IMG/VR virus record: IMGVR_UViG_3300017766_003100
Coordinates: 64,001-128,000 of that record
From: a virus
Taxonomy: Duplodnaviria; Caudoviricetes
DNA length: 64,000 bases
Direction: 5' to 3' (one strand)
Below the pieces are notes generated by a model that had not been told where the DNA came from, searched no databases, and worked only from the letters and a program-made list of their open reading frames with translations. The translations under genes were made by a program, and so were the position numbers. Positions 31,398 to 39,466 of this stretch are shown here, piece by piece (positions within the stretch are counted from its first letter, which is position 1; the number at the start of each line of letters is the position of its first letter).

Positions 31398-34300
31398 ATG
31401 GCAAATACAAAAGTTTTCGTATCACCAGGTGTTTATACTTCCGAAGTTGATTTAAGTTTTGTATCACAAAGTGTTGGTGTCACAACATTGGGTATTGTAG
31501 GGGAAACATTAAAAGGTCCTGCATTTGAACCAATTTTCATCAGAAACTTTGATGAGTTTACAGCTTTTTTCGGTGGTACATCTCCTGAAAAATTTATTAA
31601 CACACAAATACCAAAATATGAGGCATCATATATTGCAAAGGCTTATTTGCAACAATCCAACCAATTATTTGTAACTAGAATATTGGGATTGTCAGGTTAT
31701 GATGCGGGTCCTTCTTGGTCTATAACTACTGTTGCAAACGTTGACCAATCTACGGTTGGTTTTGAATGTTCAAGTGCTACAACAGCAAATTGTGTTTCTC
31801 AATGTGTTGAGTATACAATTGTTGATTACACTATTGATTTTACTGGTTGTACAAACGACTCAAGTACAATATCATTTACATTCAATTCAAGTTCGGATAT
31901 TTTAACACCTGATTTTAATTCATCATACGAATTATTTAATGGAACAACATCAATTATTTCTAATGATTTAAAAAATCAAATTTCTCAAGTAATGAGTACT
32001 CCATCTAGTTCGGCTTACTCAATAAATTATTTTGGTGTAATTTCAGGAGGTACTTATGATTCATTATCAGCATATACTGCAAGTACAAATGTATTTGGTG
32101 TTGACAATGTAAGTTCAGATTTAGCTGATTATACTGCACCAATTAATGATACTTGGTATTATGCTACCTTTGATAATATTGGTGGTGGTGATTATTCAGG
32201 TTATTCATTCTATAGTACGATTACTGGTTTAACTGAAACATCAGCTTTATCAAATTGTGCTTCATTCTATAGTTTTGAAGTTAGTTCAACAACAATTAGT
32301 ACTGTGGTTGGGGCAATTAACTATAACACTAATACAATTAGTATTTGTTTACCATCAACAGCAACTACTGCAGATTATTCAGCAATGACCGTAACATTTA
32401 GTGCTTGTACAACTGAAAGTTTAAGTGGCGTAAGTAGTAATGGGGTTGTTCAATCAGCAATCACAGAAAATGTAAACTTTAGTGCATTAACTAAGTCTTA
32501 TACAATAACATCTGATGATTTAACGGCTACTTCTGCTTGGACAGTGAATGTAACAATAACAGACCCTTGTGGACTTTGTTCTTCAGGTAATACAGGTACA
32601 ATACAATCAGGAACAACAACTTATTGTTATAGTGGTACTGTAATGGGTAAAATATTTGTTTACACTGGTGATTCTTATACTAATTACGATGACTTAGTAA
32701 TTGCTACACTTCGTTCAAGAGGTATTGCAACATATAGTAATGATAATGGTGCAGTTTATGAGGTTCAAGATTTAAATGGTGTTTCACTTGATTGTACTGG
32801 TTCTTACTCAGCGGTAACTAAAAATCCTTTTTCAACATTTGGTGTAAATGTTACAAGTAAAGATGGTGACACTTATTTCTTTGAAACATCATTCTCTAAT
32901 TCTAATGTAAATTACATAGGAAAAGTTTTTGGATATTCAAACTTTGCAAAACCAAGAACTGTAGTTCCTCTATTCTTAGAAGAAAGATTCCAAACTTTAT
33001 TAAATTATGGATATAGAAAAGGTTACATTAGAGGTTTAAGTTGTGACTTAACTGCATTACCTGAGTCAAGAAATGGAGATTCTACTTCAATTGGTTGGTA
33101 TATGGAACAATATCAATCACCTGAATCACCTTGGGTTGTTTCTGAATTAAGAGGTAATAAAGTATTTAACCTATTTAAATTTATAACAATAGCTGATGGT
33201 GAATCTGCAAATACTGAAGTTAAAATTTCAATCGCTAACATTTCATTTAATAATGGGACATTTGATGTATTAGTAAGAGACTTTTTTGATAACGATTCAA
33301 ATCCAGTTGTGATTGAGAAATTCACTAATTGTACAATGAATCCAAACGAAAATAGTTTTATTGCTAAAAAGATTGGTACTAATGATGGTGAATATGAAAT
33401 GAATTCTAAATATATTATGATTCAAATCAACGAAGACGCTCCAATTGATGCTCTTCCTTGTGGATTTGAAGGTTACACATTTAGAGAATATGCTGGAGTA
33501 AAATCACCATTCCCAATTTATAAAACTAAGTACGATTTCCCTGGTGAAGTTATATACAATCCACCTTTTGGTTTAGCATCTGGTTCTGATGACGCAACAA
33601 GAAGTTCAGGTGATAACGTAAGAAGAACTTATTTAGGTTTATCTGATACACTTGGATATGATATTGATTTCTTTGGTTATAAAGGTAAACAAGTACCATT
33701 AAGTGTTTGTGATGATACATCAGGTAGTGATTGGGCGTTCAGAACTCAAGGTTTCCATATGGATATAAATGCTTCAGGTATTACAATACCTAACATTTAT
33801 ACATCAAGTGGTACATCTGCATTCCAAGTTGGTTCAGCACCATTTATTACAGACCCTGATAATGAATCAAATCCATATTACAGATTATTTGCACGTAAAT
33901 TCACTTTATTTGTAAATGGTGGTTTTGATGGATGGGATATCTATAGAGAATCAAGAACAAATACTGATAGATTTAGATTGGGTGGTGCAGGTTATTTAAA
34001 AGGTGCTTGTACATCAATAAGATACCCTAGTGCAACTGGTTTTGGAGCGTTCAAACGTATTACAGTTGGTAATAATAATCAAGATTTCGCAAACACAGAT
34101 TACTACGCTTACTTGTTAGGCCAACAAACATTTGCTAATCCTGAAGCTGTTAATATAAATGTATTTACTACACCTGGTATTGATTATGTAAATCATTCAA
34201 ATCTTGTAGAATCTGCAATTGAAATGATTGAATTTGATAGAGCGGATTCAATTTATATCTGTACAACACCAGACTACAATATGTTTGTACCTGTAACTAC

Positions 34301-34985
34301 AGATAACGCTGATTTGATTTACCCAACTGAAGCAGTTGATAATTTAGATACAGCTGGTATTGATTCTAACTATACTGCAACTTACTATCCTTGGGTTTTA
34401 ACAAGAGATACAGTAAACAATACTCAATTGTATATTCCACCAACAGCGGAAGTTTGTAGAAATCTTGCCTTGACTGATAACATTGCCTTCCCTTGGTTTG
34501 CTGCGGCAGGTTATACTCGTGGTATTGTAAATGGTATCAAAGCAAGAAAGAAACTTACACAAGAAGATAGAGATACCTTATATAAAGGTAGAATCAATCC
34601 AATTGCAACATTCTCAGACGTTGGAACTGTAATTTGGGGTAACAAAACTCTACAAGTTAGAGAGTCAGCATTAGATAGAATTAACGTAAGAAGACTTTTA
34701 CTTCAAGCACGTAAATTAATATCTGCAGTTTCTGTAAGATTATTATTTGAACAAAACGATGCTAAAGTTAGACAAGACTTCTTAGACGCAGTTAATCCTA
34801 TTTTGGATGCAATTAGAAGAGACAGAGGTTTATATGATTTCCGTGTAACAGTTTCTTCTGACCCTGCTGATTTGGATAGAAATCAACTTACTGGTAAGAT
34901 TTATATCAAACCAACCAAAGCATTGGAGTTCATCGATATTACATTCTATATCACTCCAACTGGTGCATCATTCGAAAATATCTAA
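31398..34985 (+). CDS. Contractile tail sheath protein with a large insertion
   Basis: VSPGVYTSEVD N-terminus; PWFAAAGYTRG; INPIATF...IWGNKTL; RINVRRLL C-terminal sheath motifs. Confidence 0.95.
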   Translation: MANTKVFVSPGVYTSEVDLSFVSQSVGVTTLGIVGETLKGPAFEPIFIRNFDEFTAFFGGTSPEKFINTQIPKYEASYIAKAYLQQSNQLFVTRILGLSGYDAGPSWSITTVANVDQSTVGFECSSATTANCVSQCVEYTIVDYTIDFTGCTNDSSTISFTFNSSSDILTPDFNSSYELFNGTTSIISNDLKNQISQVMSTPSSSAYSINYFGVISGGTYDSLSAYTASTNVFGVDNVSSDLADYTAPINDTWYYATFDNIGGGDYSGYSFYSTITGLTETSALSNCASFYSFEVSSTTISTVVGAINYNTNTISICLPSTATTADYSAMTVTFSACTTESLSGVSSNGVVQSAITENVNFSALTKSYTITSDDLTATSAWTVNVTITDPCGLCSSGNTGTIQSGTTTYCYSGTVMGKIFVYTGDSYTNYDDLVIATLRSRGIATYSNDNGAVYEVQDLNGVSLDCTGSYSAVTKNPFSTFGVNVTSKDGDTYFFETSFSNSNVNYIGKVFGYSNFAKPRTVVPLFLEERFQTLLNYGYRKGYIRGLSCDLTALPESRNGDSTSIGWYMEQYQSPESPWVVSELRGNKVFNLFKFITIADGESANTEVKISIANISFNNGTFDVLVRDFFDNDSNPVVIEKFTNCTMNPNENSFIAKKIGTNDGEYEMNSKYIMIQINEDAPIDALPCGFEGYTFREYAGVKSPFPIYKTKYDFPGEVIYNPPFGLASGSDDATRSSGDNVRRTYLGLSDTLGYDIDFFGYKGKQVPLSVCDDTSGSDWAFRTQGFHMDINASGITIPNIYTSSGTSAFQVGSAPFITDPDNESNPYYRLFARKFTLFVNGGFDGWDIYRESRTNTDRFRLGGAGYLKGACTSIRYPSATGFGAFKRITVGNNNQDFANTDYYAYLLGQQTFANPEAVNINVFTTPGIDYVNHSNLVESAIEMIEFDRADSIYICTTPDYNMFVPVTTDNADLIYPTEAVDNLDTAGIDSNYTATYYPWVLTRDTVNNTQLYIPPTAEVCRNLALTDNIAFPWFAAAGYTRGIVNGIKARKKLTQEDRDTLYKGRINPIATFSDVGTVIWGNKTLQVRESALDRINVRRLLLQARKLISAVSVRLLFEQNDAKVRQDFLDAVNPILDAIRRDRGLYDFRVTVSSDPADLDRNQLTGKIYIKPTKALEFIDITFYITPTGASFENI

Positions 34986-35053: not shown

Positions 35054-35938
35054 ATGAAAAATACTATAATCAGAATTCTTAGAGAAATAGAAGAAAGAGA
35101 AATACCTATGAAGTATTACGCTTTCGATTGGGATGATAATCTAATGTATATGCCAACACAAATTTATTTATTAGATGATGATGGTGAAGAAGTTGGTATG
35201 GGTACTGAAGATTTTGCTGAACACAGAACAGAAATAGGTAAAACACCTTTTGAATATAAAGGTTTTACAATTGTTAATTTTGCACCAAATCCTTTTAGAG
35301 ATTTTAAAACCGATGGGGATGGTAAGTTTTTAAGAGATGTTATGAGTGCTGAACTTGCTGAGGATGCTGCTTGGCCTGATTTTGTTGAGGCAATTAATAG
35401 TGGGTCATTATTTTCAATAATAACAGCTAGAGGACATAGACCTAACACATTAAAAAGTGGGGTATTAAAATTAATTAATTCAAATAGAGGTGGAATTGAT
35501 TCTGATGAATTATATGCTTCTTTAGTAAGAATGAGAAAAAATGCTGGTGAAAAACCTAAAGATAAAGATACTGAAATTAAAAAGTATTTAGACTTATGTA
35601 GATTCTATCCTGTTACATATGGAGAAGGTTCTGCAGCAAATCCTGAAGTTGCTAAAATTTCAGCAATGAATAAGTTTAAAAGTTATGTTCAAGCTCAAGT
35701 TGATAAACTTAATATTAGATTATCCAAAAATATTGAAAATAAGATATCTAATAAATTTGTACCAATTATTGGATTTTCAGATGATGACCCAAGAAACATT
35801 GAAGCAATGAGTAAGGGTGTAAAGGATATTAAGATTTATTCAACACATGGTGGAAAGAAAAAATTATATAAAAGAGAAGAAGATGAATTACAATTAGAAT
35901 ATAAAATAAAAAGTATTATTAAAAAACTAATTAAATAA
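35054..35938 (+). CDS. HAD-superfamily phosphatase-like protein
   Basis: YYAFDWDDN (DxD motif I), IITARG (motif II), GFSDDD..N (motif IV). Confidence 0.7.
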   Translation: MKNTIIRILREIEEREIPMKYYAFDWDDNLMYMPTQIYLLDDDGEEVGMGTEDFAEHRTEIGKTPFEYKGFTIVNFAPNPFRDFKTDGDGKFLRDVMSAELAEDAAWPDFVEAINSGSLFSIITARGHRPNTLKSGVLKLINSNRGGIDSDELYASLVRMRKNAGEKPKDKDTEIKKYLDLCRFYPVTYGEGSAANPEVAKISAMNKFKSYVQAQVDKLNIRLSKNIENKISNKFVPIIGFSDDDPRNIEAMSKGVKDIKIYSTHGGKKKLYKREEDELQLEYKIKSIIKKLIK

Positions 35939-36080: not shown

Positions 36081-36569
36081 ATGGCTGATTTATTAATGAA
36101 AATGCCGGTTCCATATGAACCAAAAAGACAGAATAGATTTATTTTAAGGTTTCCATCATCTTTGGGTATCAATGAGTGGTTTGTTGAGTCTGCAAAAAGA
36201 CCATCAATTAAAGTTAACTCAGTTGCTATTCCTTTCTTGAATACTTCAACATATGTTGCAGGACGTTTTGAATGGAATGAAATTGGTATTAAATTAAGAG
36301 ACCCTATCGGACCATCAGCGGCACAAGCAATTATGGAATGGATGCGTCTTTGTGCTGAGTCTGTAACTGGTCGTATGGGTTATGCCGCAGGTTACAAGAA
36401 AAATGTTGACTTGGAAATGTTAGACCCAACTGGTGTTGTTGTAGAAAAATGGATACTAGAAGGTACTTGGATGACAAGTGCTGACTTTGGTTCTCTTGGT
36501 TATAGTACTGATGCTTTGGCTGATATCAGTGTTAACTTAAGAATGGACCGTTGTATATTAGTTTACTAA
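36081..36569 (+). CDS. Tail tube protein (T4 gp19-like)
   Basis: EPKRQNRF.LRF, WMRL, WILEGTW and D...L....DI.V.L..D patterns; follows the sheath. Confidence 0.85.
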   Translation: MADLLMKMPVPYEPKRQNRFILRFPSSLGINEWFVESAKRPSIKVNSVAIPFLNTSTYVAGRFEWNEIGIKLRDPIGPSAAQAIMEWMRLCAESVTGRMGYAAGYKKNVDLEMLDPTGVVVEKWILEGTWMTSADFGSLGYSTDALADISVNLRMDRCILVY

Positions 36570-36651
36570 AAAATATTTTAACTTAAAATCTAATTCCTAA
36601 ATGTATTATGTACATTTGGGAATTTTTTTTTATTATGTAAATAAAAAAACT

Positions 36652-37404
36652 ATGAATATTGAAGAAATTGGACAAGCTAATTTTAGTTTACCACACGATT
36701 TAGTACCACTTCCATCCCAAGGTATATTTTATAAATCAAAAAAGAAAGCAATCAAGGTTGGTTATTTAACTGCAAATGATGAAAACTTTTTGGTTAGTGG
36801 AAATCAAGTAAATGGTGGTAATATTATTTTAACTCTTTTGAGAAATAAAATATATGAACCAGATTTAAGACCTGAAGATTTATTGGAGGGTGATATTGAA
36901 GCTATCTTGATTTTTTTGAGAAATACGGCATTTGGTCCTGAATATCAAATATCTTTAACTGACCCTATTACTAACAAACAATTTTCAGCTGATTTATTAA
37001 TTGATGAATTAAAAATAAAACAAACAAAAGAAAAACCAGATGAAAATGGTTTTTTTACTACAAGACTTCCAAAAACTGGGTCAGTTGTTAAATTAAAACC
37101 ATTAACTTATGGTGAAATAGTTGAGTTGGATAAAATGGCAGAACAATATCCTAATGGTAGAGTAGTTCCTAAAATTACATGGAGATTAAATAAAATTGTT
37201 CAAGAAATAGATGGTGATAGTGATAGAACTAACATTGCACTTACTATTGAGAACTTACCAATAGCGGATTCAAAACATATAAGAAATTTTATAAAAGATA
37301 ATACACCATCATTAGATTTAAGTAAGACCCTCCAAGCCCCTTCAGGAGAAAAGGTAACATTTGATGTTACTTTTGGGACTGAGTTTTTTCGTCCTTTCTT
37401 CTAA
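36652..37404 (+). CDS. Tail assembly chaperone / gp26-like baseplate hub assembly protein (start corrected from 36601)
   Basis: LPSQGIFY...YLTANDE motif; lies between tube and tape measure; ATG 36652 has an A-rich context. Confidence 0.7.
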   Translation: MNIEEIGQANFSLPHDLVPLPSQGIFYKSKKKAIKVGYLTANDENFLVSGNQVNGGNIILTLLRNKIYEPDLRPEDLLEGDIEAILIFLRNTAFGPEYQISLTDPITNKQFSADLLIDELKIKQTKEKPDENGFFTTRLPKTGSVVKLKPLTYGEIVELDKMAEQYPNGRVVPKITWRLNKIVQEIDGDSDRTNIALTIENLPIADSKHIRNFIKDNTPSLDLSKTLQAPSGEKVTFDVTFGTEFFRPFF

Positions 37405-37546
37405 TCACCGACAATATCTTTTGGATGATTATTATATAATGGCTAAATTTTTAAGAACTAGTTGGAGTGATTTTTTATCAATACCAACTTATGCAAGAAA
37501 GTATTTAATAAATCTAATAATAGAACAAAATACCCCGAAAGACTAA
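37361..37546 (+). CDS. Short gp51-like / chaperone C-terminal extension in the +1 frame overlapping the chaperone end
   Basis: LLDDYYIMAKF...WSDFLSIPTYARKYLINLIIEQ resembles small gp51-type chaperone parts; ends just before a terminator. Confidence 0.6.
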   Translation: MMLLLGLSFFVLSSNHRQYLLDDYYIMAKFLRTSWSDFLSIPTYARKYLINLIIEQNTPKD

Positions 37547-37567
37547 TTCCAAAAAATTAGTCTTTTT
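37538..37567 (+). terminator. Intrinsic terminator
   Basis: AAAGACTAATT-CCAAAA-AATTAGTCTTT(TT). Confidence 0.65.
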
Positions 37568-37594: not shown

Positions 37595-39466
37595 ATGGGT
37601 GACGAAGATAAAAAGTTTGAAAATGTTTTTAAAGCTTTTGGTACTTATGCCGAAACTGTTGGTAAAGCGTTTGCTACCAATTTTATGGCAACCGAAATTG
37701 ATAAAACAATTAAACAATATGAGACCTCAGCCGTAAATGTATTAAAAACATTTGGTACAGGTAGAGACAGAATTGTTGAATTAAAGGCCTCTATGGCTGA
37801 TGCCGTAACAAGTGTTAAATTGTTAGGTGGAGAATTTACTGATGTTGCAAATATTGCTGAAGGTATTGGTAAATCACTTAATAGAAATTTAATTTTAACA
37901 AGCCAATCATATGAAAAATTATTTGCGACTCAAAAAGTAACTGGTATAGATGCTGGAACATTAGCAACTAATTTTAAAGATGCGGGGTATTCAGTATACC
38001 AAATTGGACAAAATATGGAAAAAGTTGTTAATACTGCAAGAGCACAAGGTATTAACGCAAGAGAAGTTTCATCCCAAGTTGTACAAAATATGGGATTGAT
38101 GGACAAATATAATTTTGCTGGTGGTGTTGAAGGTTTGGCAAAAATGGTTACACAAGCAACAAGTTTAAGAATTTCGGTTAGAGATATTGCTAATACAATG
38201 CAAAAAGCTTTTGAACCTGAAAGTGCAATTGAAATGGCAGCCGCATTACAAAGATTAGGTATGGCTCAAGGTGATTTATTAGACCCACTTAGATTAATGG
38301 ATTTAGCCCAAAATGACCCAGCGGAATTACAGAATCAAATTGCTGAAATGAGTAAAACATTTGTTGAATTCAATCAACAAACAAAAGCATTTGAAATAGC
38401 ACCTGGGGCTAAACGACAATTACAAGAGGTAGCACAAGCATTAGGTATGCAACCTGAAGCTTTTGCCAAGATGGCTAAGTCAGCAGCTGAGATGGATGAC
38501 AAGTTATCAAAAATTTCTTTCCCTAATACGTTTACAGAAGAACAAAAGAAATTTGTTGCCAATATGGCTGAGATGGGTGAAGGTGGTGAATATATGTTGA
38601 GAGTTGACAACAAAGACTTAAAACTTGATGAAGCTATGAAATTATTTGAGGGTGACTCAAAAAAACTAGAAAAGTTTATGAAAGAATCCCAACCAAAATC
38701 AATTGAAGACTTGGCTAAAGAACAATTAACAACTTCACAAAGAATGGCGGCAAACGTAAACGCTATTGCTAATAGAATGGGGGCGGCGGTTGCAAGTTCT
38801 GAAAGTCAAGAAATGGCAAATCAGGCAAGTGTTCAATTAAGTGAAGCTATTCCTAAAATGTTAAGTGGTGAAAAATTACAAGTTCAAACTATGAGAGAAT
38901 TTGGTGATAAAATGGCTCAAGATTTAATTAAAGATGCTCAATCGGGTAAATTAGTTGAAGGTTTAGGTAAAGCCGAAAAAGCTCAGGAAAATTATTTTAC
39001 TGGTGCATTAGATGATATGTCAACTGGAGTACAAACGGCATTTAAAGGTTTGAGTGAATCAACTAATCCTTTGATTCAAATAACAAGTAATTTAGTTGGA
39101 AAAATGGGAGACCTCATCATTAAAAATGAAAATTTAGATTCAAGTTTTTTTAAATTAAAAACTAGTGCTGATAACGCGGCAAATGGTTTAAGTAAAACAA
39201 GTACCGAAACTGCTAAAACAAATGTAAATGTTACACCACCACCACCAACAACTACGAAAGAAGAGATGAAATCACCATTAAAGAATAATGAAACTTCTAC
39301 GACAGAAATGAAATTTACTAATCCAATTGAAATAAAAGTTACATTGTCAGGATTCCCATCTGGTATGACAGAAGAAAATATTAAGAAAATGATAGAAGAG
39401 GGTAAATTCAGTCAAGAAATTGTTAAAGCAATAAGTGATGCTGAAAAACAAAAAACTAAACAATAA
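37595..39466 (+). CDS. Tape measure protein (putative)
   Basis: Helical, Ala/Gln/Met/Lys-rich 623 aa directly after tube and chaperone. Confidence 0.7.
   Translation: MGDEDKKFENVFKAFGTYAETVGKAFATNFMATEIDKTIKQYETSAVNVLKTFGTGRDRIVELKASMADAVTSVKLLGGEFTDVANIAEGIGKSLNRNLILTSQSYEKLFATQKVTGIDAGTLATNFKDAGYSVYQIGQNMEKVVNTARAQGINAREVSSQVVQNMGLMDKYNFAGGVEGLAKMVTQATSLRISVRDIANTMQKAFEPESAIEMAAALQRLGMAQGDLLDPLRLMDLAQNDPAELQNQIAEMSKTFVEFNQQTKAFEIAPGAKRQLQEVAQALGMQPEAFAKMAKSAAEMDDKLSKISFPNTFTEEQKKFVANMAEMGEGGEYMLRVDNKDLKLDEAMKLFEGDSKKLEKFMKESQPKSIEDLAKEQLTTSQRMAANVNAIANRMGAAVASSESQEMANQASVQLSEAIPKMLSGEKLQVQTMREFGDKMAQDLIKDAQSGKLVEGLGKAEKAQENYFTGALDDMSTGVQTAFKGLSESTNPLIQITSNLVGKMGDLIIKNENLDSSFFKLKTSADNAANGLSKTSTETAKTNVNVTPPPPTTTKEEMKSPLKNNETSTTEMKFTNPIEIKVTLSGFPSGMTEENIKKMIEEGKFSQEIVKAISDAEKQKTKQ

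Follow-up and report, generated by a model that had tools for sequence, protein, structure and literature searches.

The tail module of a large freshwater T4-like phage, contained in the window (the whole stretch of 64,000 nucleotides analyzed here), raised the question of whether the gene of a gp26-like assembly chaperone gives rise to one protein or to two. The 250-aa ORF of this gene ends with GAG TTT TTT CGT CCT TTC TTC TAA (37381-37404), while the +1 frame (37388-37390 TTC, 37391 GTC, and so on) is open from 37361 to the TAA at 37544-37546. An earlier note, which was made from the letters of the DNA only, had given the end of the chaperone ORF exactly, and its statement that the +1 frame runs on to 37546 also held. 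The note interpreted the pair as the G/GT frameshift of long-tailed phages in an unusual form, +1 or -2. The sequence itself and the frame relation of the two ORFs are established, and the analysis described below supported this interpretation, the +1 shift being favored by the comparison with sister clades. A real programmed +1 frameshift at UUU-UUU-CGU appears likely to us (probability about 0.8), with no experimental evidence available for either product. The features of the region are as follows:

31398..34985, + strand: tail sheath gene (context), a large ORF whose counterpart is annotated as tail sheath in relatives having the same gene order
35054-35938: ORF of 294 aa, located after the sheath gene and before the tube gene, without Pfam or PHROGs match
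36081..36569, + strand: tail tube gene, gp19-like, 162 aa (phrog_4542, 7.2e-25; weak PF06841 match)
36592..36624, + strand: terminator-like hairpin with a T run, 3′ of the tube gene, 15-pair stem
36652..37404, + strand: gp26-like hub/tape-measure chaperone gene, zero-frame short product of 250 aa (PF12322, phrog_150)
37384..37392, + strand: proposed +1 shift site TTT TTT CGT, a string conserved in the clade
37388..37546, + strand: +1-frame extension, gp51-tail-like, 52 codons plus stop, conserved in the +1 frame
37537..37566, + strand: hairpin with a U-rich tail just past the extension stop, probable terminator or attenuator
37595..39466, + strand: presumed tape measure protein gene, 623 aa, assigned by position and size only

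The order of genes in the window is sheath, 294-aa ORF, tube, gp26-like gene with the +1 ORF, 623-aa ORF, and a 1684-aa ORF. The same order, with an annotated tape measure gene after the chaperone, was found in Flavobacterium phage immuto, Bacillus phage SP-15, and Listeria phage LIS04. The product of 37595-39466 had no Pfam or PHROGs family match and no similarity to the tape measure protein of immuto, and its identification is a presumption inferred only from position and size; the earlier claim that the tape measure gene comes next was upheld in this limited sense. The terminator that had been claimed after the extension corresponds to a hairpin with a U-rich stretch at 37537-37566 (12 bp, -13.3 kcal/mol, z -5.75), which was not called by the consensus terminator scan because it contains only two G-C pairs. 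As a separate observation, a 520-nt contig from the freshwater metatranscriptome run X7 was identical to 36979-37497 of the window, which is weak evidence that this region was present, unedited, in an RNA library, and the region or close relatives of it also occurred in several freshwater or lake metagenomes of different studies.

The start of the gp26-like gene was assigned to the ATG at 36652, because the upstream part of a longer ORF call (267 aa, from 36601) runs through the terminator-like hairpin at 36592-36624. The database relatives of the protein are 250 aa long, fitting this start. The 250-aa protein matched PF12322 (T4_baseplate) with an E-value of 1.9e-7 and 31.5 bits over profile positions 10-209 of 219. 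As this score exceeds the Pfam gathering cut-off of 24.5 bits, membership in the family of the T4 gp26/gp51 hub assembly chaperones can be regarded as established. The protein also matched phrog_150, “baseplate hub” (1.5e-9). The AlphaFold2 model of the short form reached a pLDDT of 84, and its fold matches in BFVD were baseplate hub (assembly) proteins, including gp26 of Aeromonas phage 25. VIA-align, run over 48,161 solved chains, gave tail assembly chaperones as its first two matches, YqbN of B. subtilis (Z 5.6 over 81 residues) and that of HK97 (Z 5.5 over 83 residues), both showing a modest similarity in fold to the C-terminal half of the model, and lactococcal p2 ORF12 stood lower in the list (Z 2.5); all of these chaperone matches (Z <6) lie below the caution line of the program, Z 8. 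No match in the PDB was obtained by Foldseek or by sequence search. Of 4379 database relatives, the best 120 included no in-frame fusion. We infer from these matches that the gene encodes an assembly chaperone of the gp26/gp51 family for the tail hub and the tape measure.

The probability of finding an open frame of 61 codons in DNA of 31% GC is about 0.007 taken alone. The case goes beyond chance, and its main weight is carried by conservation and not by the length of the open frame. A scan of IMG/VR yielded 80 loci with gp26-like proteins of 57-89% identity, and the tail was visible in 79 of them; tblastn placed it in the +1 frame in 79/79, its beginning lying 14 nt short of the point where the upstream ORF ends. 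When distant proteins were used as seeds for three more scans, 170 usable loci from three sister clades were recovered, and a profile of the tail detected it in the +1 frame at 168 of these. The alignment of orthologues, proposed in the earlier note as a check, was thus passed with a conserved +1 relation in both groups, with TTT_CGN in the clade of the window and with YTT TGG in its sisters. The tail always begins at the same Phe-Phe codons that close the gp26-like domain. The same +1 relation was recognized in distant relatives that share the gene order, namely immuto, SP-15, and LIS04, as well as Microcystis phage Mel-JY01, Streptococcus phage GXN1, and the uncultured phage LR756508. In the records of immuto and SP-15 only an internal, ATG-started fragment of the tail is annotated, and the tblastn homology reaches upstream into the overlap.

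The junctions themselves proved to be strongly constrained. The string TTT TTT CGN CCT TTC TTC was invariant in the 42 distinct junctions of the window clade, except for the third base of CGN. The distinct junctions of the sister clades included TTT TTT TGG CCT (83), TTT CTT TGG (26), TTC TTT TGG (8), and TTT CTA TGG (4), and the motif across the 166 distinct junctions (42 of the window clade and 124 of the sister clades) can be given as TTT TTT CGN or YTT TGG. The site in the window is a single T-to-C change away from the common TGG form of the sister clades. The zero-frame stop varies in position among the relatives, lying 4-8 codons past the site, and as its position is not conserved, the shift does not depend on the stop codon. 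A different frame relation was encountered in a distant member of the family, Xanthomonas phage Xoo-sp13 (L088:4283-4555), where the FF is the same but the tail is encoded in the -1 frame after GCT TTT TTT ATT, which contains the classical heptamer T_TTT_TTT; in this record only a 60-aa internal fragment of the tail was annotated by the depositors.

Purifying selection moves to the +1 frame at the T run. Two codons 5′ of the run, the zero frame keeps Val, Ala, or Thr by means of eight different codons, and the +1 frame at the same position reads Leu, Trp, Arg, Gln, Ser, or stop. Still farther upstream, stops abound in the +1 frame, and 31 of the 42 window-clade sequences have one 30 nt before the T run. 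Past the overlap, the synonymous share of the single-base codon differences is 56% for the +1 frame versus 17-18% for the other two, and the invariant residues of the extension are F1, L3, S4, S5, P33, and R37. This pattern of conservation and selection, which is established, bears on the possibility that the +1 ORF is a decaying or unexpressed remnant and that only the 250-aa protein matters. The absence of protein expression data leaves room for a remnant; however, strong purifying selection in the +1 frame over hundreds of loci all but excludes it.

The main rival explanation dispenses with the frameshift altogether. According to this, the extension would be a separate protein of about 55-60 aa initiated at TTG 37373, ATG 37364, or TTG 37361, perhaps by termination-reinitiation coupled with the upstream gene. 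The earlier note was right that the sole ATG beyond the overlap is at 37439, a start at which would lose about 17 conserved residues, but it omitted these three start codons, which are located within the overlap and 5′ of the T run. Several facts speak for the rival: possible starts are present in the +1 frame of the window 5′ of the T run; a TTG stands at the equivalent place, a few codons upstream of the run, in 41 of the 42 distinct members of the window clade (an ATG in 25 of the 42); and two IMG/VR relatives, L125:2217-2549 and L131:2214-2510, encode the module as a separate, non-overlapping ORF starting with ATG.

The evidence against separate initiation came mainly from the junctions that lack any start. 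The open +1 frame upstream of the site contained no ATG, GTG, or TTG in 46 of the 166 distinct junctions, 45 of them among the 124 of the sister clades, where in many cases a +1 stop directly precedes the T run, and one (L023) among the 42 of the window clade. In L023, a TAG is located one codon before the T run, and the next start codon occurs only well inside the conserved tail. The existence of such startless relatives is established, but since TTG is present in 41/42, the direct exclusion of separate initiation within the window clade rests on L023 only, beyond which the argument is one by analogy with the sister clades. The TTG can be explained as arising incidentally from TTT GGG, the conserved codons for Phe-Gly in the zero frame, and from this TTG to the T run the +1 frame undergoes radical replacements, among them a stop in L023. 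Furthermore, a separate protein would need neither the strict +1 relation nor the overlap at the same FF codons, whereas in the real split forms, L125 and L131, the ORFs do not overlap, the +1 continuity is lost, and about 20 extra N-terminal residues (MENIDNLLREIQ...) are present. The slip motif of L125 has decayed to TTC TTG TAT. Finally, the corresponding tail of T4 gp51 is fused in frame. Considering all this, we judge a separate small protein to be unlikely and prefer the frameshift. L125 and L131 are regarded as natural “split” forms of the long chaperone, and their separate ATG-started genes indicate that the tail module can work unfused. The earlier note had accepted as refutation a conserved start codon belonging to the small ORF, or a lack of conservation of the frame relation and the motif; neither was observed, apart from these two split loci.

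As to how the shift would proceed, the following mechanism is proposed. Most ribosomes would read the zero frame, stop at 37402, and release the 250-aa short form ending with ...EFFRPFF. A minority would pause while tRNA-Phe in the P site is paired with UUU 37387-37389 and the A site presents CGU, a rare Arg codon, and tRNA-Phe would re-pair one base forward on UUC 37388-37390, which is the better match for its anticodon GAA. Reading would then continue in the +1 frame as GUC CUU UCU ... to 37546, resulting in a 297-aa long form (...GTEFF-VLSSNHR...) with the expected +1 junction peptide VTFDVTFGTEFFVLSSNHR. The long form would bear a 51-residue, probably helical C-terminal module, and the phage would possess two N-terminally identical chaperones in a fixed ratio, the long one with an extra binding module. 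The actual shift of the ribosome, the exact slip codon, the efficiency, the binding partner of the tail, and the requirement for both products are inferred from sequence alone. A complex prediction for the extension and the tube protein returned a score of 0.00 and no answer, which is uninformative either way.

All junctions permit the +1 re-pairing, being UUU_C, UUU_U, or CUU_U. The T-to-C change that distinguishes the window clade makes the +1 P-site codon UUC, a Watson-Crick match for tRNA-Phe(GAA), and the A-site codon CGN. Codon usage was counted in the 31 long ORFs of the window (18,443 codons), where CGN codons amount to 2.9 per 1000 (CGT 2.0, CGC 0.1, CGG 0, and CGA 0.8) and AGA to 25; among all these codons the site discussed here is the only in-frame TTT_CGN. 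The rarity of CGN is established in terms of phage codon usage, not of host tRNA levels. The window contains no tRNA genes. A complete relative of 317 kb, IMGVR_UViG_3300032242_003291 (L102, L089, L099, L092; 131.6-138.9 kb), carries 21 of them, including Phe(GAA), Arg(ACG), Arg(TCT), and Trp(CCA), which serve the codons in the P and A sites of either type of junction. The tRNA-Arg(ACG) is a caveat to the rare-CGN argument. No unusual tRNA was detected in this relative besides a degenerate His-like copy, which adjoins the tRNA-His gene (Rfam 36.6 bits) and was not called by ARAGORN.

The same long product could also be obtained if the ribosome slipped by -2 on the T6 run or if the RNA polymerase dropped one U. 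The T6 run is invariant in the window clade, tRNA-Phe would re-pair perfectly after a -2 slip and reach the same frame, and neither possibility can be excluded from the window clade alone. The sister clades, however, contain TTC TTT TGG (8) and TTT CTA TGG (4), at which the -2 slip cannot re-pair and the +1 slip can, and it is because these junctions fit +1 only that the +1 slip was preferred. These two forms and TTT CTT TGG (26) have no homopolymer for the polymerase to slip on. The metatranscriptome contig covering 36979-37497 showed no indel compared with the DNA, though contigs hide minor variants, and six T residues are short for polymerase slippage in general. Both alternatives are thus very unlikely, and the +1 slip of the ribosome remains the reading followed here. 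Neither the surroundings of the site nor the sequence past it showed a conserved RNA structure, the energy given by RNAalifold for 0 to +66 being 0. In the window itself, a local hairpin, GGGAC/GUCC, encloses the site across the T run without covariation support. A conserved Shine-Dalgarno-like element next to the site was likewise not found in the window clade.

The tail-assembly-chaperone frameshift is conserved in long-tailed phages and is also known from P2 as E/E+E' (Xu, Hendrix and Duda 2004; PMC9024508 ref 38). The G/GT frameshift belongs to the most conserved recoding events of tailed phages. The locus would share with gpG/gpGT of lambda the N-terminally identical products, the overlapping frames, the position of the gene between tube and tape measure, and the slip site at the end of the short form, and the two inferred forms would be the functional counterparts of G and GT. 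What can be expected of a G/GT system was met here in two respects: the ORF pair overlaps between the tube gene and, judged by position, the tape measure gene, and the overlap has a conserved slip-prone sequence and a fixed frame relation without an independent start in 46/166 junctions. A -1 shift on an X_XXY_YYZ heptamer, also expected of such a system, was not met, as the relation is +1; G_TTT_TTT (-1) at the site in the window would enter a frame that closes after 17 codons. In contrast to lambda, the shift is +1 and not -1 and lacks such a heptamer, the extension is only about 50 aa, and the protein, a member of PF12322 instead of a classical TAC family, has roughly double the length.

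Among the known +1 sites, the UUU_CGN motif of plant amalgaviruses and of influenza A PA-X (Nibert et al. 2016, PMC5052127) has the same core. Its requirement is fulfilled by the in-frame TTT CGT at 37387-37392 with rare CGN, and the systems would have in common the re-pairing of P-site UUU on UUC and a genome-rare CGN Arg codon in the A site. They differ in that eukaryotic ribosomes act there and bacterial ones here, where the motif is derived from the UUU_UGG of the sister clades. The +1 site of bacterial prfB (RF2) is CUU_UGA_C with an upstream Shine-Dalgarno element. The phage sites would, like this one, rely on a P-site slip onto a codon starting with U, and the CUU_UGG of the sister clades is one base from CUU_UGA. 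Unlike prfB, the phage sites have CGT or TGG and not a stop in the A site, and no Shine-Dalgarno-like element is found 3 nt upstream; a site of the prfB type, defined by its stop, is not given, with the stop at least 4 codons downstream and mobile. In Listeria phage PSA, +1 frameshifts were described for capsid and tail proteins (Zimmer et al. 2003; PMC9024508 ref 24). There too, +1 recoding leads to C-terminally extended proteins of the phage structural module, but these are the major capsid and tail proteins, not a chaperone, and the PSA site is reported to be different, with a proline codon before the stop.

The earlier note had called the +1-frame segment conserved-looking and gp51-like. 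Its conservation was confirmed as described above, and a resemblance to the C-terminal tail of T4 gp51 was indeed seen. Each of the T4 proteins gp26 (208 aa) and gp51 (249 aa) matches PF12322 over its whole length (8.8e-64 for gp26, 3.9e-52 for gp51), and the two match each other with an E-value of 2e-6, which identifies them as paralogues; their genes, 26 and 51, are on opposite strands. The greater length of gp51 is due to a tail of about 48 extra residues at its C-terminus, and gp26 ends with KEFFELL at the same FF motif. When the frameshift-tail profile was aligned with that of the T4-like gp51 tail by hhalign, 38 columns were matched with P 9.7e-5 and a probability of 58%, and when the full-length profiles were compared, the tail-to-tail match again ranked first among the local alignments. 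By eye, a YS..MP..R..L..IE pattern is shared by the extension and the gp51 tail, and the junction reads EFF-VPD or EFF-TPD in Firmicute phages versus LL-VNPD in T4-like gp51. The homology of the extension with the gp51 tail has modest support from these data. The tail was seen only by profile comparison: BLASTP of the fused product against T4 gp51 gave nothing significant; the extension alone matched no family in Pfam or PHROGs and nothing in the phage collection searched by tblastn; and the Pfam and PHROGs profiles do not extend into the tail, the phrog_150 match growing by a few positions in the fused product.

It is likely, as far as can be inferred from the sequences only, that one gene here yields the short/long pair that T4 holds as genes 26 and 51. 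The likeness consists in the PF12322 family, a short form ending at the ..EFF.. motif, and a long form with a C-terminal tail whose homology has modest support, while the T4 proteins are encoded by two diverged paralogous genes on opposite strands without recoding, and here there is one gene. gp26 and gp51 are listed as hub assembly chaperones by Leiman et al. 2010 (PMC3004832, Table 2); gp51 is described there as an essential protein that is not part of the particle and whose function is unknown (PMC3004832). The label “tape measure protein assembly chaperone” has already been given to gp51 in one GenBank record. A further arrangement was noted in Klebsiella phage Lemur_ER36 (L110:2087-3381), where the tube genes are followed by a gp51-like (247 aa) and a gp26-like (184 aa) gene arranged in tandem on one strand, unlike the divergent pair of T4.

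No published recoding in the gp26/gp51 family was found in the literature searched, which was an incomplete set. With a single frameshifting gene, the T4 pair could be understood simply, both in its evolution and in its function, as short and long tape-measure/hub chaperones, and a natural sense-codon +1 site would be added to the few known for bacterial ribosomes. It also implies an annotation fix for hundreds of phage genomes, in which the tail was missed or called from an internal ATG, as in immuto and SP-15. A bolder reading, which we consider possible but not more likely than not, is that YUU_UGG_CCU and its derivative UUU_CGN_CCU represent a widespread, undescribed class of +1 signals in bacterial phages. 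If this were true, the signal would require neither a stop codon nor a Shine-Dalgarno element nor any RNA structure, T4 gp26/gp51 would be the long-missing G/GT equivalents of T4-like phages, and the availability of tRNAs for Trp or Arg, phage-borne ones among them, might adjust the ratio of short and long forms. The claim of a frameshift is directly testable because cultured relatives exist, namely immuto, Mel-JY01, and SP-15.

Two minor observations concern the surroundings of the site. The synonymous position of two Gly codons upstream of it was invariant in 42/42 distinct members of the window clade: one is the GGG at 37375-37377, a codon making up 9% of the Gly codons in the window, and the other is the GGA within AGGAG, 37344-37348. 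These may represent an extra signal or mere chance. The hairpins with T or U tails at 36592-36624 and 37537-37566 flank the chaperone gene on both sides, and it is possible that the expression of the chaperone is attenuated by them relative to that of the tube. An annotated terminator is also present 3′ of the tube gene in SP-15.
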